32,000 nt of DNA from Candidatus Saccharimonadota bacterium (lineage in GTDB: Archaea; Nanobdellota; Nanobdellia; Pacearchaeales; GW2011-AR1). The DNA lies in contig JBEKXS010000001.1 of NCBI GenBank assembly GCA_049511795.1, forward strand, positions 30,001 through 62,000. The letters run 5' to 3'. The notes below the pieces were generated by a model, which ran no database searches, was not told the DNA's origin, and saw only the letters and a list, made by a program, of their open reading frames with translations. The position numbers were made by a program, and so were the translations under genes. Shown piece by piece: positions 5,618 through 24,028 of this stretch. The stretch's first letter is position 1. Every line of letters begins with the position of its first letter.

Positions 5618-6991
5618 TTAATCTTCACTCATTGCTCTTTGCTCGGAAACGAAGAAAGCCTTGTTTGATTCTATTTCGTGTATGTTTCCTTCCCTGTCAA
5701 ATACTGCTGTTGCTGTTGGCAATTCAAACCTACCGACAACACCAACCTTTGAGTAAATTATGTATGAAAATATTCTGACTTCTCCAGGATTCATTGCGTC
5801 AATATTCCATTCTATTCTTCTGTTTCTTTCATCAACTCTTGTTGGAGCATCCCCACCAAATCTCTCATGAAGCTTTACCATCATAGGAAGTTGGTCAACA
5901 ATGTTTACTCTTTCAACATGATTTCTTGCTTGTGCAGATATTGAAACCCTGAGTGCAAATTCCCCGCCCTTTGCCCTCACGAATGAAACTCTTTTCCTAA
6001 GCACCAAGCTTGTTCCTGTGTATTTTCTCACAAGGAAGACAACCAATACAACAAGCAATACAAGTATGAATGGGAAAAGCCAGTTTGTCTTTACAGTTAT
6101 TTCAAAAGTTTCTCCAGGATTTATGTTCTTTGTCCACGTGTAGTAAACAACAAGACCTTCTCTCTGAACGATGTCTGGAGTTGGAGTAAAGCTTGTAAAT
6201 AATCTTGAGATAATATTTTTCTGTATTACTGTCTCAGAGCTTACAACAGTGTTTCCCTGGTTCTGCTTATCAATAACTTCTGTGTTTATCAGGATTCCAT
6301 AATCCTGCTTTGTTGTTGTAAGAATGTCTTTCTCTCCATATTTTATTACTCCTTCAACATCTGCAGTTTTTCCTATTGCATTTACTTGCGCATTCAATGT
6401 GTAAAATCCAGCCATTAAGCTCCTGAAATCAGCCTGATTCAACTGAACAGTGAATGTCTGCTTTTCATAAGGACTTAAAGCAACTGTTTTATCTAGATTA
6501 AAGAATGGAGATGAGAAATTAACATCCGCATTTCCAAAATCAAAATTTACAAGATTCTGTATGTATATATCAATAGACTGCGATTGTGGATCAACATTTC
6601 CTGAACCGATTTGGAAAGCGTCTTTCATGTCTATTATCTTGAATGTCGCGCTTTCATTGTCTATTGACCTGTCGCTTGCCTGTATGAAATAAGGAACAGT
6701 GTAATATCCTCTTTGGGAAATACTACCTATTGGAGTAAGTTGTAAAGTAATTTCTTTTGTCTGCCCATTTTGGATAGTTACATTATTTGGGTTCATGCTG
6801 AAGCCTGCAAGATTGTAAATCTGAAAATTATCAGAAAGCCCTAGGTTTGTTATATTCAAATCAAAAGTTACAGGCTGTCCTGAATCGGCAATAAGAACTT
6901 CATTCTGGCTGTTTTTTGCAACCTGGATGTTTATTGCGAGTATGTTTGGAAGAATAAAAATCAATGCTATCAAAAAAAACCACTTTTTCAT
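5618..6991 (-). CDS. Surface/membrane protein with beta-sandwich (CARDB/NEW3/DUF11-like) domains and one C-proximal TM helix
   Basis: Signal peptide MKKWFFLIALIFILPNILA, repeated beta-rich domains and the TM segment WLFPFILVLLVVLVVFLV. Confidence 0.6.
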   Translation of the reverse strand: MKKWFFLIALIFILPNILAINIQVAKNSQNEVLIADSGQPVTFDLNITNLGLSDNFQIYNLAGFSMNPNNVTIQNGQTKEITLQLTPIGSISQRGYYTVPYFIQASDRSIDNESATFKIIDMKDAFQIGSGNVDPQSQSIDIYIQNLVNFDFGNADVNFSSPFFNLDKTVALSPYEKQTFTVQLNQADFRSLMAGFYTLNAQVNAIGKTADVEGVIKYGEKDILTTTKQDYGILINTEVIDKQNQGNTVVSSETVIQKNIISRLFTSFTPTPDIVQREGLVVYYTWTKNINPGETFEITVKTNWLFPFILVLLVVLVVFLVRKYTGTSLVLRKRVSFVRAKGGEFALRVSISAQARNHVERVNIVDQLPMMVKLHERFGGDAPTRVDERNRRIEWNIDAMNPGEVRIFSYIIYSKVGVVGRFELPTATAVFDREGNIHEIESNKAFFVSEQRAMSED

Positions 6992-13394: not shown

Positions 13395-14381
13395 TTAAAC
13401 AAATCCTGTCTTCAAAGTTTCTTCCCATGTTTTCAATCCAAGGGCAACAAGAGCCTCGCGGAAAGTTAAAATCGGCTTTTCATATTTGTAGAAGTCATCA
13501 AGCGCAATTCTAGGACATGCGAGTTCAATAAAAGCGTCAATATTGTAAAAATTCATCACTTTATCAGGAGTCATTTCAGACATTGTTATAACAACTGCAT
13601 TTTTTCCAGCTTCCTTCAGCTTTTGAAGCAGGAATTTTGGAGAGCCGAACTTTTGTCCAGGTTTTATCTCGACAATTATCGCAACATTTTCAGCTTCCCT
13701 TAATTTTTCTATTGAAATTGCTCTTTGCTTCAGTATTTTTTCCCTAAGGCCTTTCATACTTCTCACGTCGTCATTGTAAACATCAATAAGAACAACTGGC
13801 TTTTCCAAAGCAAGAGAAGCACCCATTGAATGAAACTGATTTCCTATAATAACAAAAGCCTCGACATCTTTTTGTATTGCCTTCAATCCTTCATACTGGC
13901 AACCAACAATATGTCCTTCATAAGCAACATTTCCAACTTTTTTTGAAAGAATAACTTTTTTCCCTGCTTTTCTGTAGAAATCCAGAATATTCTTTAAATC
14001 ATGACGATGCTGAATTGAATAAGACAATCCGATTGTCTTGAATTCTTTTATTTCCTTGAGAGATTTTTTTAAAATTGGATTTAGGTCAAGAAGGTCTTTT
14101 ACTTCTATATATAATATAGGAAATTTGGAAGAAATAAATTCTGCATGACCAAAATGCACAATCAAATCACATCCAAGCGCTTGTGCTTCCTGAACAGCAA
14201 TTGAGCAAGCTCCCCAGCATGTTTCTCCTGAGAAAATAACTTCAATTCCAAGAGGCTCAATCCAGTTTGATATTTCAGGCGCATGCTTTTTTATTCCCTC
14301 TGCCAGCTGAACCAAAACTCTTTTCGGTTTTCTTTTCTTCAGTTCTTTCAATAATTTTTCCTTTTCAAAATCAAGTGCCAT
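13395..14381 (-). CDS. dph2: Diphthamide synthesis radical-SAM enzyme Dph2
   Basis: Full-length similarity pattern to archaeal Dph2 (..RVLVQLAEGIK.., GETCWGAC.., DLIVHFGHA..). Confidence 0.85.
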   Translation of the reverse strand: MALDFEKEKLLKELKKRKPKRVLVQLAEGIKKHAPEISNWIEPLGIEVIFSGETCWGACSIAVQEAQALGCDLIVHFGHAEFISSKFPILYIEVKDLLDLNPILKKSLKEIKEFKTIGLSYSIQHRHDLKNILDFYRKAGKKVILSKKVGNVAYEGHIVGCQYEGLKAIQKDVEAFVIIGNQFHSMGASLALEKPVVLIDVYNDDVRSMKGLREKILKQRAISIEKLREAENVAIIVEIKPGQKFGSPKFLLQKLKEAGKNAVVITMSEMTPDKVMNFYNIDAFIELACPRIALDDFYKYEKPILTFREALVALGLKTWEETLKTGFV

Positions 14382-14389
14382 TTTTTATT

Positions 14390-14650
14390 TTAAACTACTA
14401 TTTCAACTTCGCCCGAAATTATTTTGCATTGGCATGCAAGCCTGTGCTTTTTGTCTCTTTTCAAATCATTTTCCTCTTTTGTCAATGGAGAAAGATTTTC
14501 TTCTCCTTTAACAATATCAATCATGCATGTGCCGCAAACTCCATTTTTGCAGTTGAATTCAACGCCGAGAATTTCAGCTACGTTTCTAATATTTTCACCA
14601 TCTTTCACTTCTTTTGCCTTCCCTGTTTTAGAATTTTTTAACGTTGCCAT
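14390..14650 (-). CDS. Small 2Fe-2S ferredoxin-like protein (86 aa)
   Basis: CKNGVCGTC (Cx4Cx2C) plus a distal LACQC. The start is taken at MATLKN (14650) so it does not overlap the TrxR-like gene. 8 nt separate its stop from the dph2 ATG. Confidence 0.7.
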   Translation of the reverse strand: MATLKNSKTGKAKEVKDGENIRNVAEILGVEFNCKNGVCGTCMIDIVKGEENLSPLTKEENDLKRDKKHRLACQCKIISGEVEIVV

Positions 14651-14672
14651 TTTATTTTTCTGAGAACTATAC

Positions 14673-15614
14673 TTATAAGCCTTTCTTATTGATATATTCA
14701 TATGCGCTGTATGCTGCTGTGCATGCGTCTGCAACTCCTGTTATAAGCTGCTTGAAAGGCTTGTCTGTAACATCTCCTGCTGCGAAAATACCAGGAATAT
14801 TTGTTTCAGAAGTCATATGGTTTATTATAATTTCTTTTTCCTTATTTAGCTTCACTCCAAGATTTTCCGCAAGCTCTGAGAGAATTATGTGACCTATTGC
14901 AACAAAAACACCATCGAGCTTAAGCTCTTTTGAACTTTTATAAGATTTATTTAACATAACAGATGTAACTGCTTCCTTACCTTTAACTTCAATGATGTTT
15001 GTGTTATTTATTACTTCAATCTTTTTGTTCTTTTGAACACGGGCAAAATTTATTGGTTCTGGATGTATTTTGGATCCCCTATATATTATATACACTTTCT
15101 TTGCATGCTCTGAAAGGAATAAAGCATCTTTAATAGCGCTGTCGCTTCCCCCGACAACTCCTACAATTTTATTTTTGTAAAGAGGGCCGTCACATAAAGC
15201 GCAGTAATGTACACCACGATTCATCAACCTGTCTGCACCAGGAACTTCCAATTTTCTCCATCTTGTTCCTGTCGCGAACAAAATTGTTTTTCCATTATAC
15301 TCTGCTTTTTTTGTTTTTACGCTGAAACCTGTTTTTATTTTCTTTATTTCCTCTGCTTTTTCTGTCTTTATTGTCACTAAATCATATGAGCGAGCATGCT
15401 CTTCAAGTTTTTTTGCTAATTCAAAACCCTTTATTTTTGTAAAACCCGGATAATTTTCAACAATGTCTGTTGTTGTAATAACTCCCCCAACAGGAAGGTC
15501 TGTTCCATGGCTGAACCCAAGAACAAGCGCTTTCATTCCAAGCCTTGCAGCATACATTGCCCCTGCTAAACCTGCTCCTCCACCACCAAGAATGATAAAG
15601 TCATAGGATTCCAT
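14673..15614 (-). CDS. Thioredoxin-reductase-like flavoprotein lacking the NADPH signature
   Basis: Contains GGGGAGLAGA (FAD site), the CALC redox dithiol and GGSDSA. The HRRDxFRA NADPH 2'-phosphate motif is replaced by YRGSKIHP. The start is taken at MESYDF. Confidence 0.75.
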   Translation of the reverse strand: MESYDFIILGGGGAGLAGAMYAARLGMKALVLGFSHGTDLPVGGVITTTDIVENYPGFTKIKGFELAKKLEEHARSYDLVTIKTEKAEEIKKIKTGFSVKTKKAEYNGKTILFATGTRWRKLEVPGADRLMNRGVHYCALCDGPLYKNKIVGVVGGSDSAIKDALFLSEHAKKVYIIYRGSKIHPEPINFARVQKNKKIEVINNTNIIEVKGKEAVTSVMLNKSYKSSKELKLDGVFVAIGHIILSELAENLGVKLNKEKEIIINHMTSETNIPGIFAAGDVTDKPFKQLITGVADACTAAYSAYEYINKKGL

Positions 15615-15743
15615 TATATTATAGCACAATTATTCCCCCTTAATTATAATTTATACTTTTTGTTAAACACTTATCATATATAAAGGTAGTCTTTAACCTA
15701 CTCTGTTAACTTAAAGGTTGGTTTTAGATATAATCTACAAATA

Positions 15744-15760: not shown

Positions 15761-15781
15761 TGAAGAAATGAGATTAATATG

Positions 15782-16144
15782 ATGGAATTAGATAGTGCAA
15801 CTTTAAGCTATGATGGACGCTGGGGGACAGGTACATGTTATTTGCCAAATGCACAGAAATTTATTGAAGGACTTCCAATTGTAGTCATGGGATTTGGAGG
15901 AATAGTTCCAGAAGTGAGAATTTTTCCTAATCAAGATAATAATGGAGAGATTTTTATGGAAGTTCCACATGGCATCGTACTTCGTGGATTAGAAAGAATT
16001 CATTCTGCTGGATATGAAGCAAGATTAATTTATGATGACACAAATGAAGACAACCCTCAGTTATATATTTACAAGGGTTTGGCTCTAATTGTAACTAAAC
16101 AAAAGAAAGAGGGCATAAAAGTTAGGAGCCATAACTCATCTTAA
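15782..16144 (+). CDS. Hypothetical protein, 120 aa (starts MEL; motif EVPHGIVLR)
   Basis: ORF. The 15782 start is preferred because of the 21-nt promoter spacing and the shared ATGGAATTA start sequence. Confidence 0.55.
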   Translation: MELDSATLSYDGRWGTGTCYLPNAQKFIEGLPIVVMGFGGIVPEVRIFPNQDNNGEIFMEVPHGIVLRGLERIHSAGYEARLIYDDTNEDNPQLYIYKGLALIVTKQKKEGIKVRSHNSS

Positions 16145-18882: not shown

Positions 18883-19611
18883 TTATTTTTTCAGCCATTC
18901 ATAGCCTTTTTCTTCCAAATGGTCGACAAGTTTCCCAGCACCTTCTTTGACAATTTTTCCATTAAGCATTATTGAAACTTTGTCTGGTTTTACATATTCA
19001 AGAATTCTTTTGTAATGAGTTATTATCAAAACTGTTTTATCTTTTGACATGAACTTGTTTATTCCGTTAGCAATTATTCTTAGGGAATCTATATCCAAGC
19101 CAGAATCTGTTTCATCAAGGATTGCAACCTGTGGATTCAGGACAAGAAGTTGAAGTATTTCTGATTTTTTCTTTTCTCCACCGGAAAATCCCTTGTTTAG
19201 ATAGCGAGACAGGAATTCTCGCGGGATTTTCAGTTCGTCTGCTGTTTTCTCCAGCAATTCCTGAAATTCCATTAAAGAAAGCTTTTTTTCATGGACAGAA
19301 TTGTAGGCTTGCCTCAAAAAGCTTGAAAGCTTTACACCTTCAATTTCAATAGGATTCTGGAATGAGAGAAACAAACCTAATTTTGCCCTTTCGCTGACGC
19401 TTAATTTCAAAATATCCTGATCATTGAATAAAATTTGCCCTTCATTAACATTATATCTTGGATCACCTGCAATTATATTTGCTAAAGTTGATTTTCCGCT
19501 TCCATTTGGACCCATCAAAGCATTAACTTTTCCTTGCTCAAGATTTAAGTTAAGTCCTTTCAGGATTTCTTTTCCTTTGAAAGCAACATGGAGATTTTTT
19601 ATTTCAAACAT
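18883..19611 (-). CDS. sufC: Fe-S cluster assembly ATPase SufC
   Basis: Walker A GPNGSGKST, ABC signature FSGGEKKK, Walker B ILDETDSGLD. Confidence 0.9.
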   Translation of the reverse strand: MFEIKNLHVAFKGKEILKGLNLNLEQGKVNALMGPNGSGKSTLANIIAGDPRYNVNEGQILFNDQDILKLSVSERAKLGLFLSFQNPIEIEGVKLSSFLRQAYNSVHEKKLSLMEFQELLEKTADELKIPREFLSRYLNKGFSGGEKKKSEILQLLVLNPQVAILDETDSGLDIDSLRIIANGINKFMSKDKTVLIITHYKRILEYVKPDKVSIMLNGKIVKEGAGKLVDHLEEKGYEWLKK

Positions 19612-19613
19612 TT

Positions 19614-19901
19614 TTATAAACTATATTTTTTAAGAAGCTCATCTGAATAATCTTTTTCTACATCTGACAATTCCCACCTGACTCCATCCCTTATAACAAG
19701 ACCTCTTTCGTCTGGTACAAATTCGGTAAAGTGATAGCAACGAATATCATTATCTATTCTTGCCAGAATAACATATTCTAATTTTTTACCTGATTCAACA
19801 CCTACAATAAGAGTTTTTCCTAAATGAATTCCCCCTCTTTGATTTTCTCTTTTCAATAATGTTCTGTTTATCATTCCAGGGGGCAATCTTTCTGTTAACA
19901 T
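19614..19901 (-). CDS. Orphan 95-aa protein embedded between sufU and sufC
   Basis: ORF with 1-nt and 2-nt gaps to its neighbours. No family recognised. Confidence 0.5.
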   Translation of the reverse strand: MLTERLPPGMINRTLLKRENQRGGIHLGKTLIVGVESGKKLEYVILARIDNDIRCYHFTEFVPDERGLVIRDGVRWELSDVEKDYSDELLKKYSL

Positions 19902-19902
19902 T

Positions 19903-20277
19903 TTACTTTAACGCTCCTTTAACAGCTTCAAAAGAAAGCAGCGCGCATTTCATTCTTGAGGGAGTTAATTTTGTTTTCAAAAGATCAAGAGCTTCTTCAC
20001 CTTTCATGTTTTTTACCTGAGAAATAGGCATCCCTTTGATTTTGTCTGTAAGCAAGGAGGAAGAAACCATTGAAACAACACAACCAGAGCCAGAGAATTT
20101 TATATCATCGATTTTTCCAGCTTTAACATTCATCTCAACAGTTATTTCATCGCCGCAGATTGAATTGTGCGAAGTATGCTTATGGCTTGGATTTTTTAGT
20201 TCTCCGAAATTGCTTGGGCTTTTGTATAACTCAAGTATTTCTTCCCTGTACATGTCATCTACATTTTCGTGGGCCAT
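19903..20277 (-). CDS. sufU: SufU/IscU-like Fe-S scaffold or sulfur acceptor
   Basis: Carries NSICGDEI, GSGCVVS and MKCALL, the three conserved Cys motifs of the NifU-N/SufU family. Confidence 0.85.
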   Translation of the reverse strand: MAHENVDDMYREEILELYKSPSNFGELKNPSHKHTSHNSICGDEITVEMNVKAGKIDDIKFSGSGCVVSMVSSSLLTDKIKGMPISQVKNMKGEEALDLLKTKLTPSRMKCALLSFEAVKGALK

Positions 20278-20278
20278 T

Positions 20279-21502
20279 TTATTTGAATTTCTCCTGGGCT
20301 TCTTTTAATGAATCAACAAGAGCATCAATATCTTCCAAAGTATTGTAAAAAGCAAGACTTGCCCTACAAACACCGTTTTTTGCATTAATTATAGACATCA
20401 AAGGCATTGCGCAGCAATGTCCTGCCCTGACAGCAATCTTTTTTTCATTGAGAATTTCTGAAATGTCATGAGGATGTATAGAACCTAAAGTAAAAGATAT
20501 CACAGGTATGCTTTCTCCAGTGTTTGGATGATAAATTTTTATTCCAGGAACTTCGTTTAATCTTTTTAATGCATATTTCAGCAAATAAGCTTCCCATTCC
20601 TTTATGTTATCAAGTCCTATTTTTTTAGTGTAATCAATTGCTTCTGCCAAACCGATTGCTTCTGCAATGTTTTGTGTTCCAGCCTCGAATTTCTCAGGCA
20701 GTTTTGTCCATGTCGCTGAATCAAATTTAACAAATTCAATCATGCCGCCACCAAAATTGAAAGGCGGCAGTTTTTCCAACAATTGCTTTTTTCCATAAAG
20801 AATACCAATTCCATTCGGTCCAAGCATTTTGTGGCTTGAAAAAGCAAGAAAATCGCAGTCAAGAGATTTTACATCAACAGGAATGTGCTGGATTGCCTGC
20901 GCTGCGTCAATTATTGTTATTGCTCCCTTTTCTTTTGCGAGCTTGACCATTTCTTTTACAGGATTTACTGTTCCAAGAACATTTGAAGCATATGCAACAG
21001 AGACAATTGCTATTTTGTCTGTTAGCTTTTTCTTAAAGTCCTCAATATTAAGAGTAAAATCAGGATTTACCTTAACAAAATTTAATTTCCATCCATTTCT
21101 TTTGCATAATTCCTGCCACGGAACAAGATTTGAGTGATGTTCCATTTCTGTAATAATAATTTCATTTTTTCCTTTTGGAATAATTTCAGAAATTGTGTAA
21201 GCCAGCAAGTTAATTGATTCTGTTGTGTTTCTTGTGAATATTATTTCATCTTGCTCCGCATGAATAAAATCAGCTATAACTTTTCTTGCCTGGTCATATC
21301 TTTTCATTGCTTTTTCTGCAAGAGTGTAAATTCCGCGACCGATGTTTGCATTATCTTTTTCAGAGAAATTCTTTACAGTGTTTATCACACTTGTTGGCCT
21401 TTGGCTTGTTGCTGCGTTGTCCAAGTAAACAAGACCAAGATTATGGCTGAAAATAGGGAAATCCTTCTTTATCTGCTTTGCAACTTCATTTGTTATTTTC
21501 AT
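20279..21502 (-). CDS. sufS: Cysteine desulfurase SufS (class V aminotransferase)
   Basis: PLP-lysine context FSSHKMLGP and active-site RAGHCCA. The start is taken at MKITNE, 1 nt after the sufB stop. Confidence 0.9.
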   Translation of the reverse strand: MKITNEVAKQIKKDFPIFSHNLGLVYLDNAATSQRPTSVINTVKNFSEKDNANIGRGIYTLAEKAMKRYDQARKVIADFIHAEQDEIIFTRNTTESINLLAYTISEIIPKGKNEIIITEMEHHSNLVPWQELCKRNGWKLNFVKVNPDFTLNIEDFKKKLTDKIAIVSVAYASNVLGTVNPVKEMVKLAKEKGAITIIDAAQAIQHIPVDVKSLDCDFLAFSSHKMLGPNGIGILYGKKQLLEKLPPFNFGGGMIEFVKFDSATWTKLPEKFEAGTQNIAEAIGLAEAIDYTKKIGLDNIKEWEAYLLKYALKRLNEVPGIKIYHPNTGESIPVISFTLGSIHPHDISEILNEKKIAVRAGHCCAMPLMSIINAKNGVCRASLAFYNTLEDIDALVDSLKEAQEKFK

Positions 21503-21503
21503 T

Positions 21504-22913
21504 TTATACAACAGAGTTTTCAATCTCCAACTCAATCAATCTGTTTAATTCAACTGCATATTCAAGAGGCAATTCTCTTATTAAAGGTTCAATAAATCCA
21601 GAGACAATAATCTTTGTTGCCTCTTTTTCTGAGAGGCCACGAGACATCAAGTAAAACAGCTGCTCATCTCCTATTTTTCCAACAGCTGCTTCATGAGAAA
21701 CTTCAACTTCATTTTCATCAACTTCCATGCTTGGGAAAGTTGTTGCTTTGCTTTTGTTGTCCAACATAAGACCGTCGCAGCGAACGCTTGATTTTGAGCC
21801 TGTACAGCCGTTTTTTACCTTTACAAGACCACGATAAGCTGTTATTCCGCCGTTCATGCAAATGCTTTTGCTTATTATGTGCGAGCTTGTGTTTTTTGCA
21901 AAATGATATGCTTTGCATCCTGTATCTTGATATTGCCCGGCGTTTGCATATGCAATTCCTGTGTAGTCTGTTTTTGCATTTTCCCCTATAAGAACAGAAG
22001 AAGGGTAAAGCATTGTTACCTTGCTCCCTGTATTTCCATTTACCCATTCCATTATACCATTTTCATGAACAATCGCGCGTTTTGTGTTAAGATTGTAAAC
22101 ATTTTTGCTCCAGTTTTCAATGCTTGAATAACGGACACGGGCATTTTTCAAGACGTGAATTTCAACACCTCCTGCATGAAGAGAATTTTCAGAATAAACA
22201 GGAGCAGAACAACCTTCTATATAATGAACTTCGCTGCCTTCGTCTGCAATTATCAAAGTATGCTCGAATTGTCCTCCTTTTCTTGCATTCATCCTGAAAT
22301 AAGCCTGAAGAGGCAGGTCAACTTTAACTCCTTTAGGAACATAAATGAATGTTCCCCCTGACCAAAAAGCTCCATGAAGAGCTGTAAACTTATGAAGATT
22401 TGCAGGAATGCAATTTGTCATGAAATATTTTTTGAATAATTCAGGATGCTGTTTTAAACCCTCATCGCAGTCAAGGAAAATAACGCCAATATCTTCCCAT
22501 TGTTTTTTCAGCTTGTGGTAAATGACCTCTGATTCATATTGAGCCCCAACACCCGCAAGAGCTTCCCTTTCAGCCCTTGGAATTCCTAATTTTTCATAAG
22601 TATTTTTTATATCTTCAGGAACATCATCCCATGTTTTTGCATTTTTCTTTGCATCTGGCTTTATGAAATATGAAATTTCCTGCAGATTCAAATCAGCAAG
22701 GCTTGGCCCGAAGTTTGGCATTGGCATTTCATTGAATAATTTTAATGCATCAAGCCTTTTTTGCAGCATCCACTCTGGCTCGTTCTTGTCTTTTGAAATT
22801 TGGCGCACAAGCTCTTCGCTTACTCCAGCTGTTGCTTTGAATTTCAGTTTCTCTGGGTCGCTATGGTCATAAATTTCTCTACTTATTTTTATTTTTTGCT
22901 CTTGTTTTTCCAT
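21504..22913 (-). CDS. sufB: Fe-S cluster assembly protein SufB
   Basis: 469 aa with typical SufB/SufD beta-helix core and C-terminal FIEP..LP.EYA..LN motif. Confidence 0.9.
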   Translation of the reverse strand: MEKQEQKIKISREIYDHSDPEKLKFKATAGVSEELVRQISKDKNEPEWMLQKRLDALKLFNEMPMPNFGPSLADLNLQEISYFIKPDAKKNAKTWDDVPEDIKNTYEKLGIPRAEREALAGVGAQYESEVIYHKLKKQWEDIGVIFLDCDEGLKQHPELFKKYFMTNCIPANLHKFTALHGAFWSGGTFIYVPKGVKVDLPLQAYFRMNARKGGQFEHTLIIADEGSEVHYIEGCSAPVYSENSLHAGGVEIHVLKNARVRYSSIENWSKNVYNLNTKRAIVHENGIMEWVNGNTGSKVTMLYPSSVLIGENAKTDYTGIAYANAGQYQDTGCKAYHFAKNTSSHIISKSICMNGGITAYRGLVKVKNGCTGSKSSVRCDGLMLDNKSKATTFPSMEVDENEVEVSHEAAVGKIGDEQLFYLMSRGLSEKEATKIIVSGFIEPLIRELPLEYAVELNRLIELEIENSVV

Positions 22914-23133
22914 TTTTCTTATTTGATATCACTTTATTTACATCTTTCAGCATCATTCCTATTTCCTCGTCAGACATTCCATGCATCATTGCGCCGTTTT
23001 CCAATGTATCAAACTCTGAAAAATGGCATCCTATGCAGTGCAATCCATATGAAATCAATATCTCTATTGCTTCAGGATGTTGCTCAATTAAAGGGTTTAT
23101 TGGCGTTTGCCTTGTAATTTCTTGTATTTTCAT
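22879..23133 (-). CDS. DUF1858 hybrid-cluster-associated redox disulfide protein
   Basis: ..HPEAIEILISYGLHCIGCHFSEFDTLENGAMMHG.. matches the DUF1858 CxGC pattern. Its 3' end overlaps the sufB start by 35 nt. Confidence 0.7.
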   Translation of the reverse strand: MKIQEITRQTPINPLIEQHPEAIEILISYGLHCIGCHFSEFDTLENGAMMHGMSDEEIGMMLKDVNKVISNKKNGKTRAKNKNK

Positions 23134-23414
23134 AACTTATCTATTTTGGCTGCGACTTTAAAATCTTTCTCTGTCAGCCCACCTGCAGAATGAGTTGTAA
23201 GCTTTACTTCTACTTTGTTGTAATCATGAATTCTTACATCTGGATGATGCTCTTCCTCATTTGCAAGAGGAACTATCTTATCAACGAATTCCACAGCTGC
23301 TGTGAAATCAGGGAATTCAAACAAGCGCATTATGTACTGCCCATTGTCTTCAAGGCTCCAGTCAGGAGTTTTCTCAAGATACGAGCTAATCTGCGCTATA
23401 CCTAAAGGAGGCAT
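23130..23414 (-). CDS. Pterin-4a-carbinolamine dehydratase (PCD/DCoH) family protein
   Basis: EEHHPDV..Y.KV.V.LTTHSAGGLTEKD signature. The start is taken at MPPLGI. A 4-nt ATGA overlap links it to the downstream gene. Confidence 0.8.
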   Translation of the reverse strand: MPPLGIAQISSYLEKTPDWSLEDNGQYIMRLFEFPDFTAAVEFVDKIVPLANEEEHHPDVRIHDYNKVEVKLTTHSAGGLTEKDFKVAAKIDKL

Positions 23415-23419
23415 AGAAA

Positions 23420-24028
23420 TCAAAATAACTTGGATTTCAAATAGTTTTCGTTTACCTTTTCCCAATTGACGACATTCCAGAATGCATCAACATAATCAGG
23501 CCTTCTGTTTTGATATTTCAAGTAATAAGCATGCTCCCAAACATCTATTCCAAGAACAGGAATCAGTCCCTGACTTATTGGATTATCTTGGTTTGTTGTT
23601 TTAACAATTTCCAATTCTTTTTTTGAATTCAAGACAAGCCATGCCCATCCGCTTCCGAAGACAGTTGTTGCAGCGTCCTTGAATAATTCCTTGAATTTGT
23701 CAAAACTTCCGAATTTTTTGTTAATTGCCTGAAAGACTTCTCCCTTTGGCTGCATTCCTTTTTTCAAAATAGGCCAGAAGAAAGAATGATTAACATGCCC
23801 CCCTCCATTGTTTCTTACAGCTGTTCTTATATCTTCAGGAACAGAATTCAAATCTTTAATCAAATCTTCAGCTGTCTTGTTCTGCAATTCTGGATGAGAT
23901 TCCAGTGCCTTGTTGAGTTTGTCTACATAAGCCTGATGATGCTTTGTATAATGGATTTCCATTGTTTTTGTATCTATGAAAGGCTCAAGTGCATCATACG
24001 CATAAGCTAGTTTTGGTAGTGTGTGCAT
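23420..24028 (-). CDS. sod: Fe/Mn superoxide dismutase
   Basis: [22 protein letters not shown] and DVWEHAYYL metal-ligand motifs. Confidence 0.95.

Follow-up and report, generated by a model that had tools for sequence, protein, structure and literature searches.

What does a small ferredoxin do when its gene stands between those of a thioredoxin reductase (TrxR)-like flavoprotein and of Dph2, the [4Fe-4S] enzyme that cleaves S-adenosylmethionine (SAM) in diphthamide synthesis? The question is raised by a string of three genes in a 32,000-nt stretch of contig JBEKXS010000001.1 (the whole stretch is hereafter the window), which is part of a Pacearchaeota-type metagenome-assembled genome (MAG) of 530 kb, in three contigs and 92.5% complete, whose named relatives are Candidatus Pacearchaeota, Woesearchaeota and Nanoarchaeota MAGs. 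The reading that we prefer, with a confidence a little short of even, is that the string forms part of an island for redox and Fe-S maintenance that is conserved in Pacearchaeota, in which the ferredoxin (Fdx) would be an accessory carrier and Dph2 a likely client, in a role like that of Dph3. On a bolder form of this reading, which we hold rather doubtful, Fdx would be the first reductant of an archaeal Dph2 to be recognized as physiological; a limited literature search found no report of the natural electron donor of the archaeal enzyme. Archaeal Dph2 has been activated in vitro only with dithionite, and archaea do not have Dph3 (PMC8251694, PMC6143161).

The TrxR-Fdx-Dph2 string

All three genes lie on the minus strand. 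The first encodes the TrxR-like flavoprotein of 313 aa (14673-15614, stop codon at 14673-14675); the second, after a gap of 22 nt, encodes Fdx, a plant-type [2Fe-2S] ferredoxin of 86 aa (14390-14650, ATG at 14650 and stop codon at 14390-14392); and the third, after 8 nt, encodes an unsplit Dph2 of 328 aa (13395-14381, ATG at 14381). An earlier reading of the same DNA, here called the original prediction, had recognized these genes and both gaps, and the coordinates of the open reading frames (ORFs) and the family searches agree with it. The non-coding stretch 5’ of the string (15615-15700, minus strand) contains a GGGGG run ahead of a TTG at 15629 and, further upstream, TATA-like AT boxes at about 15648-15655 and 15677-15684; this TTG, 5 bases past the run, is an alternative TrxR start that would extend the protein to 318 aa. 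Judged by its sequence, the stretch may act as a promoter from which TrxR, Fdx and Dph2 are transcribed together.

Dph2 matches Diphthamide_syn in Pfam (8.9e-75) and TIGR03682 in NCBIfam (264 bits, above the cut-off of 202.8); it has three domains, with Cys59, Cys161 and Cys289 at conserved positions, and these residues would be the cluster ligands by analogy with P. horikoshii Dph2. Fdx matches Fer2 (PF00111; 2.2e-12, 47.2 bits against a cut-off of 21), and its ligand cysteines 34, 39, 42 and 73, in the pattern CX4CX2C...C, are invariant in 37 homologues; it also carries Cys75. Its best match among solved structures is Ferredoxin-4 (PDB 9i2a; 46 bits, 4e-11), which we take to be R. capsulatus FdxC. 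Two assignments to known ferredoxin types were rejected: a YfaE-like role in the maintenance of ribonucleotide reductase (RNR), since Fdx scores 24 bits against the YfaE cut-off of 75, and an ISC-type ferredoxin, since it scores 25.9 bits against the TIGR02007 cut-off of 132.

Conservation of the string and of the Fdx-Dph2 linkage

The original prediction had named the absence of this neighbourhood from related genomes as a result that would speak against it; the comparison was made, and the string is conserved in related genomes (here labelled G for genomes and L for loci). All three genes are found together in 26 species-level loci (one genome per species), and the order TrxR-Fdx-Dph2 is kept in 15 relatives of the family sampled, its co-directional form spanning many genera. 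The genes that flank the string in the window (orf121 and orf362) occur in at most one relative. The spacer that separates TrxR from Fdx measures 19-1544 nt and the one that separates Fdx from Dph2 6-4223 nt; genes are often inserted in them, encoding peroxiredoxin (10 of the 26 loci), glutaredoxin-like proteins (9) and superoxide dismutase (SOD; 8).

Fdx and Dph2 also stay together where the arrangement is different. Fdx is convergent on a split Dph2 in L039-L043, whose Dph2 pieces are 25-38% identical to the window's protein; the order is Dph2N-Dph2C-TrxR-Fdx in L044, and Dph2N, Dph2C-Fdx-SufB in L170. A linkage that outlasts rearrangement in this way argues for selection, and not only for common descent.

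Splitting of Dph2 is common in itself: in many genera the protein comes in two pieces, N-terminal (about 85 aa) and C-terminal (about 240 aa), encoded side by side or at separate loci (L037-L044 included), and split Dph1/2 forms in DPANN archaea have already been described (PMC6143161). Among the 151 genomes sampled across the order, Dph2 was not found in 22. The 20 Dph2-less genomes that are named belong to genera g19, g22, g24, g28, g35, g38, g40, g46 and g68 and are 89-95% complete, and all of them match the string's TrxR; diphthamide synthesis may have been lost in some Pacearchaeales.

Neighbours and candidate reductase of the ferredoxin

The neighbours of Fdx were counted within 3 kb in 52 archaeal-labelled species-level loci; the search for Fdx-related loci was seeded with a nine-sequence subset of the 37-sequence alignment, because the full set held no stretch conserved enough. 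The commonest neighbours are a TrxR of the same kind as the string's flavoprotein (type A, defined below; 30 loci), Dph2 (29), peroxiredoxin (25) and a glutaredoxin-like gene (16), followed by SOD (9) and Fe-S assembly genes (5). Fdx, peroxiredoxin and SOD stand together in eight loci, one of which also has a Fur-family regulator immediately upstream, and SufB, SufU and SufC follow Fdx in one genus (L046, L047, L050, L051). A DUF1858-HesB fusion comes after Fdx in two archaeal lineages (L045, L058) and in 17 of 28 bacterial-labelled loci, the radical-SAM enzyme TYW1 is encoded at most about 1.7 kb from Fdx in L040, L042, L043 and L056, and in L165 Fdx is followed, 11 nt on, by genes for a canonical HRR-type TrxR and for RNR. 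The common thread of these contexts is Fe-S clusters and oxygen stress. The window itself has an operon of SUF and SOD genes 4.5 kb from the string, and genes of the kinds seen there directly adjoin Fdx in relatives.

Two observations on these loci may be added. In L150-L180, from Chlamydiae, Verrucomicrobia and other bacterial MAGs, a member of the same family of small ferredoxins is directly followed by a DUF1858-HesB/IscA fusion, apparently a conserved pair that has not been described. L104 (labelled Omnitrophota) and L132, L143, L145 and L165 (labelled Methanosarcinales) carry DPANN-type strings, such as TrxR-Fdx-Dph2 or Fdx-peroxiredoxin-SOD, and these contigs are probably mis-binned or mislabelled.

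A second flavoprotein tracks the ferredoxin in relatives. It has about 235 aa with PF00970 and PF00175 domains, and its best structural relatives are reductase domains of the ferredoxin-NAD(P)+ reductase (FNR) type, including NADH-cytochrome b5 reductases. Strong orthologues of this FNR-like protein are present in 24 of the 151 genomes, and Fdx accompanies them in 22 of these (Fisher p = 3e-16, with no correction for phylogeny). In L138, where the gene spans 6262-6921, its start codon directly follows the Fdx stop codon, and the two genes are 230 nt apart in L111, while in G109, G055 and G120 the FNR-like gene lies 1-2 kb from Dph2, even with Fdx on another contig. This flavoprotein is likely the cognate Fdx reductase, and it is absent from the source genome, in which the FNR-like, TYW1 and Dus proteins of relatives gave no match by tblastn. 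Five genomes with all three genes of the string (G000, G017, G016, G012 and G122) yielded no FNR-like gene.

Genome-wide searches of the source genome returned one TrxR homologue, which is the string's flavoprotein, and one Fer2 match, which is the string's Fdx; a Fer4 ferredoxin, pyruvate:ferredoxin oxidoreductase (PFOR), flavodoxin and an FNR-type NAD_binding_1 protein were not found by these searches. The genome encodes one thioredoxin (93 bits, with a WCMPC site; C1:96358-96648) and, away from the string, Dph5. Its one canonical radical-SAM enzyme is Elp3-like, and Dph2 and Elp3 are the only SAM-cleaving Fe-S enzymes found in it.

The TrxR-like flavoprotein

The flavoprotein matches Pyr_redox_2 in Pfam (1.4e-39) and reaches 300.9 bits with TIGR01292 in NCBIfam, below the equivalog cut-off of 343.45. 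It has all the FAD motifs of low-Mr TrxRs (GxGxxG, ATG and GxFAAGD) and the redox CxxC, located as GGGGAG at position 10, ATG at 114, GIFAAGD at 275 and CALC at 138-141, in line with the FAD site and CALC dithiol first described for it. CALC is invariant across 42 relatives, and the thioredoxin-binding Arg/Lys is retained. The NADPH motifs, taken as GGGxxAxE and HRRDx[F/L]R (PMC5627308), are both altered: GGSDSAIK (GGSDSA at 155) stands for GGGxxAxE and YRGSKIHP (at 178) for HRRDxxRA. The original prediction had noted YRGSKIHP in place of HRRDxFRA, and the change in the pyrophosphate motif is found in addition to it. One Arg of HRR is retained, and the R181 position is occupied by His here and by Arg in many relatives.

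In a tree and alignment of 60 sequences, all from this order and rooted at a point of our choice, three TrxR kinds can be distinguished: a canonical HRR group with GGGDSAxEE and HRRDxLKA, a second kind with a Glu after the second beta-strand (GGGNSG and LESxPxITGE), and the type A clade, with GGSDSAxK[DE] and YRGxxI[H/R]PEP, to which the string's flavoprotein belongs. The conservation of the two altered motifs in type A is 0.89 and 0.82, compared with a mean of 0.75 for the protein (42 sequences); being at least as conserved as the whole protein, they indicate a pocket that is remodelled and not decayed. Proteins more than 70% identical to the flavoprotein make up over 120 clusters in public data, under automatic names only. 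These results define a large TrxR clade with a remodelled, conserved nucleotide pocket, and the electron donor of this clade bears on the thiol redox balance of DPANN archaea.

The flavoprotein was placed relative to reference enzymes (FFTR, or ferredoxin-dependent flavin thioredoxin reductase, DTR, TaTrxR and DFTR) by phmmer bit scores and motifs. The highest score, 204 bits, is with the NADPH-dependent thioredoxin reductase (NTR) of Methanosarcina mazei (4zn0), followed by 7jyp (183 bits), TaTrxR (3cty; 169 bits), E. coli TrxR (148 bits), the clostridial FFTRs 6gna, 6gnc and 6gnd (112-129 bits), Gloeobacter DTR (5j60; 124 bits) and the TrxR-like ferredoxin-NAD(P)+ reductases of the YumC or Chlorobaculum FNR type 3lzw, 2zbw and 6gas (90-94 bits). 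The C-terminus, ...YEYINKKGL, goes three residues beyond the NTR core and forms no aromatic tail, and those of the relatives have short tails at most, in which aromatic residues are mostly lacking. That the protein is of the FFTR/DTR type, as first proposed for it, is not borne out: the bit scores are nearer to NTRs, the aromatic tail is absent, and type A is the sole TrxR in close relatives without Fer2.

Two more specific identities were also rejected. Clostridial FFTR is a shortened enzyme of about 288 aa whose partner is a 2[4Fe-4S] ferredoxin; the flavoprotein has 313 aa and aligns over its full length with NTRs, and no Fer4 protein was found in the genome. The YumC and Chlorobaculum FNR type has the TrxR fold without a CxxC dithiol; the flavoprotein keeps CxxC and its scores with that type are the lowest mentioned above.

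The flavoprotein is best read as the cell's housekeeping thioredoxin reductase, with a nucleotide pocket that has been remodelled yet is under selection, and by elimination the electron donor of type A is most likely a pyridine nucleotide rather than ferredoxin.

Many type A enzymes end in a short tail with a terminal cysteine (...KVVAC, ...KIEC or ...KILTC, for example in L080, L085, L086, L088, L009, L012 and L089), which is absent from the window's TrxR and its nearest relative. The GGGNSG class, with Y[IL][LF]E[ST]xxxxTGE, occurs in L059, L060, L062 and L063 (G045, G069, G130 and G145); it has an acidic residue where NADH-binding enzymes carry one, and the same genomes also hold type A.

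Proposed role of the ferredoxin

Gene identities, motifs, synteny and co-occurrence are as observed above, and from them we infer the following electron transfers. The TrxR variant would serve as housekeeping thioredoxin reductase, drawing its electrons from a pyridine nucleotide and not from ferredoxin. Fdx, judged by its gene context, would be an accessory one-electron carrier, most likely employed in reducing or re-activating [4Fe-4S] clusters that are labile to oxygen: those of the neighbouring Dph2 first, then that of Elp3, and perhaps those under assembly on SUF. In most relatives, electrons would probably pass from NAD(P)H through the FNR-like protein to Fdx. The weakest step concerns the source genome: since the FNR-like gene is missing there, the string's own flavoprotein is left as the sole candidate found for reducing Fdx, and by exclusion a transfer from TrxR to Fdx is favoured over one from Fdx to TrxR.

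The persistence of the Fdx-Dph2 linkage through changed order and orientation, within flanks that are not conserved, speaks for this proposal, as do the TYW1 genes close to Fdx, the FNR-like gene that tracks it and the small set of redox and radical-SAM proteins found in the source genome. Several observations weigh against it. Fdx is present in just 33 of the 151 genomes and Dph2 in 129, and the same-genus genomes G144, G007 and G020 have an intact Dph2 with no Fer2 match found, so that Fdx cannot be a general Dph2 reductant. TrxR and peroxiredoxin adjoin Fdx about as often as Dph2 does, other lineages have Fdx with peroxiredoxin and SOD or ahead of SUF genes, and the bacterial homologues pair with DUF1858-HesB in most of their loci; to our knowledge, bacteria have no Dph2. 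The spacers are often long and often filled by other genes, and no fused Fdx-Dph2 form was found when longer homologues of either protein were sought, which is weak evidence. All archaeal linkage data come from one order, and the genomes are therefore not independent. Finally, for the source genome the proposal presupposes that a TrxR with intact CxxC can reduce a ferredoxin. Close relatives do without Fdx, and genes other than Dph2 adjoin it frequently; it is therefore a plausible donor for Dph2, but not a specific one.

A bolder form of the proposal, possible but rather doubtful, would make this system the archaeal counterpart of Cbr1 and Dph3 in Pacearchaeota, with Fdx reducing or re-activating the clusters of Dph2, Elp3 and TYW1 and with a reductase that is of the FNR type or, where that is missing, a remodelled TrxR in a dual role. 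The string and its counterparts in relatives single out the 86-aa Fdx, the FNR-type flavoprotein and the TrxR variant as candidates, in tiny genomes that leave few alternatives.

Alternative explanations

The alternative that survives best, although we hold it somewhat unlikely, is that the island is a general one, in which Fdx serves peroxide defence and the building or repair of Fe-S clusters, as an electron donor to SUF or HesB-type carriers for example, and Dph2 is nearby through inherited gene order. It would account for the SufB-SufU-SufC and DUF1858-HesB genes that follow Fdx, the latter in two archaeal and 17 bacterial loci, for the eight Fdx-peroxiredoxin-SOD loci and the Fur-family regulator of one of them, for the peroxiredoxin gene between Fdx and Dph2 in 10 of the 26 loci with all three genes, for the SUF and SOD operon near the string in the window, and for close relatives whose Dph2 works without Fdx. 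Inherited order agrees less well with an adjacency to Dph2 kept through changes of order and orientation, even beside very divergent split Dph2 genes, or with an FNR-like partner that adjoins Dph2 even where Fdx sits elsewhere; among the neighbours of Fdx, TYW1 is a SAM-cleaving enzyme too. The two explanations overlap, because a repair role would make Dph2 a client too.

An FFTR-like couple, which was the first option of the original prediction, is improbable. Here reduced Fdx would pass electrons to a motif-less TrxR, and from there to thioredoxin and peroxiredoxin. The NADPH motifs are indeed altered at both sites, TrxR adjoins Fdx in more than half of the archaeal loci, often with glutaredoxin-like and peroxiredoxin genes, and Fdx is found in about 20 of 55 type A genomes and about 13 of 96 others by our own count; the donor of cyanobacterial FFTR is, moreover, a plant-type ferredoxin (PMC8154056). 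On the other hand, about two thirds of type A genomes are without Fdx, and G144 (a single contig), G020 and G059 have type A as their only TrxR and gave no Fer2 match, so that type A has no obligate dependence on Fdx. The source genome yielded no PFOR, FNR-like protein, flavodoxin or Fer4 match that could provide reduced Fdx. The greater similarity of the flavoprotein to NTRs than to FFTR or DTR, the lack of an aromatic tail at the C-terminus, which cyanobacterial FFTR requires for binding plant-type ferredoxin (PMC8154056), and the Fdx that abuts a canonical HRR-type TrxR in L165 leave this reading unsupported as well, and the altered pocket is conserved and not degenerate.

Still less probable, to the point of being quite unlikely, is the second option of the original prediction, a dedicated two-component Dph2 reductase in which the TrxR-like protein has given up thioredoxin reduction and feeds Dph2 together with Fdx. 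The tight spacing in the window, the Dph2-TrxR-Fdx order of L044 and the fact that other flavoprotein candidates were not found in the source genome are in its favour. The string's flavoprotein is, nevertheless, the only TrxR of a thioredoxin-bearing genome and retains CxxC, the FAD motifs and the thioredoxin-binding Arg/Lys, and type A is present in about 20 sampled genomes without Dph2 and also in genomes with Dph2 but without Fdx. An electron link between the ferredoxin and Dph2, which the original prediction had suggested, is thus plausible, but a dedicated flavoprotein-ferredoxin supply claims too much for the sole TrxR of the cell, of a type that occurs without Dph2, and for an Fdx that few genomes have and that is about as frequently a neighbour of peroxiredoxin as of Dph2.

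That the string is a product of pure chance or of assembly, in a compact genome where co-directional gene runs are common, is refuted by its recurrence with non-conserved flanks in at least 26 independently assembled species-level genomes, and its probability is close to nil.

Other features of the window

A 121-aa ORF divergent from the TrxR gene (15779-16144, plus strand) matches neither Pfam nor NCBIfam families, and the loci of the relatives contain no equivalent of it. The segment 16384-18441 carries two DsbA-like genes and a VKOR gene. The SUF and SOD operon (18883-24028, minus strand), which is context and not part of the finding, contains sufC, sufU, sufS, sufB, a DUF1858 gene, a pterin-4a-carbinolamine dehydratase-like gene and a Fe/Mn SOD gene. 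The DUF1858 gene (66 aa) and the dehydratase-like gene lie between sufB and sod at 22936-23465, the former being the unfused counterpart of the DUF1858-HesB gene that adjoins Fdx elsewhere.

Comparison with known systems

Ferredoxin-4 (9i2a) and YfaE-like small plant-type ferredoxins share with Fdx the CX4CX2C...C pattern and the small size, but they are distantly related to it and come from other organisms and genomic contexts. In E. coli, electrons pass from NADPH through Fpr, an FNR, to flavodoxin or ferredoxin and then to radical-SAM enzymes, under oxidative-stress regulons. The proposed system is similar in that a flavoprotein and a carrier supply SAM-cleaving [4Fe-4S] enzymes, and also in that their genes share clusters or regulation with those of SOD, peroxiredoxin, the thioredoxin system and SUF.

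The FFTRs, clostridial (6gna/6gnc) and cyanobacterial (DTR, 5j60/6xtf), resemble the flavoprotein in the low-Mr TrxR fold, FAD, CxxC and departures from the NADPH motifs, and a plant-type ferredoxin gene next to the flavoprotein adds to the likeness. The protein described here differs in having no aromatic tail, in being unshortened and closer to NTRs, and in being the sole TrxR of ferredoxin-less genomes. Further parallels are Thermoplasma TaTrxR (3cty), Desulfovibrio TRi (5nii) and the NADH-preferring TR3 (PMC5627308), lineage-specific clades in which HRRD is replaced and which derive from NTR-like ancestors, with a donor that is not known or has shifted. The motif set of type A, GGSDSAxK[DE] with Y-R-G-x-x-I-[HR]-P-E-P, is different from theirs, and in contrast to TRi, whose pocket is degenerate (PMC5627308), type A retains one or two basic residues in a strongly conserved pocket.

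A further likeness is with yeast, where NADH, Cbr1 (of the FNR superfamily) and Dph3 (Kti11) form a chain that reduces Dph1-Dph2 and repairs its [3Fe-4S] cluster in air (PMC8251694); Dph3 is also required for Elongator-dependent tRNA modification, according to reference 15 of that paper. The likeness is one of proposed function only, since Dph3 is a CSL zinc-finger mono-iron protein, not homologous to the Fer2-fold [2Fe-2S] Fdx; the source genome has no FNR-type gene to match Cbr1. Both would nevertheless combine a small iron protein, an FNR-superfamily reductase and a diphthamide [4Fe-4S] client; the clients of yeast Dph3 match the Dph2 and Elp3 of the source genome, and in relatives it is the FNR-type gene that tracks Fdx.

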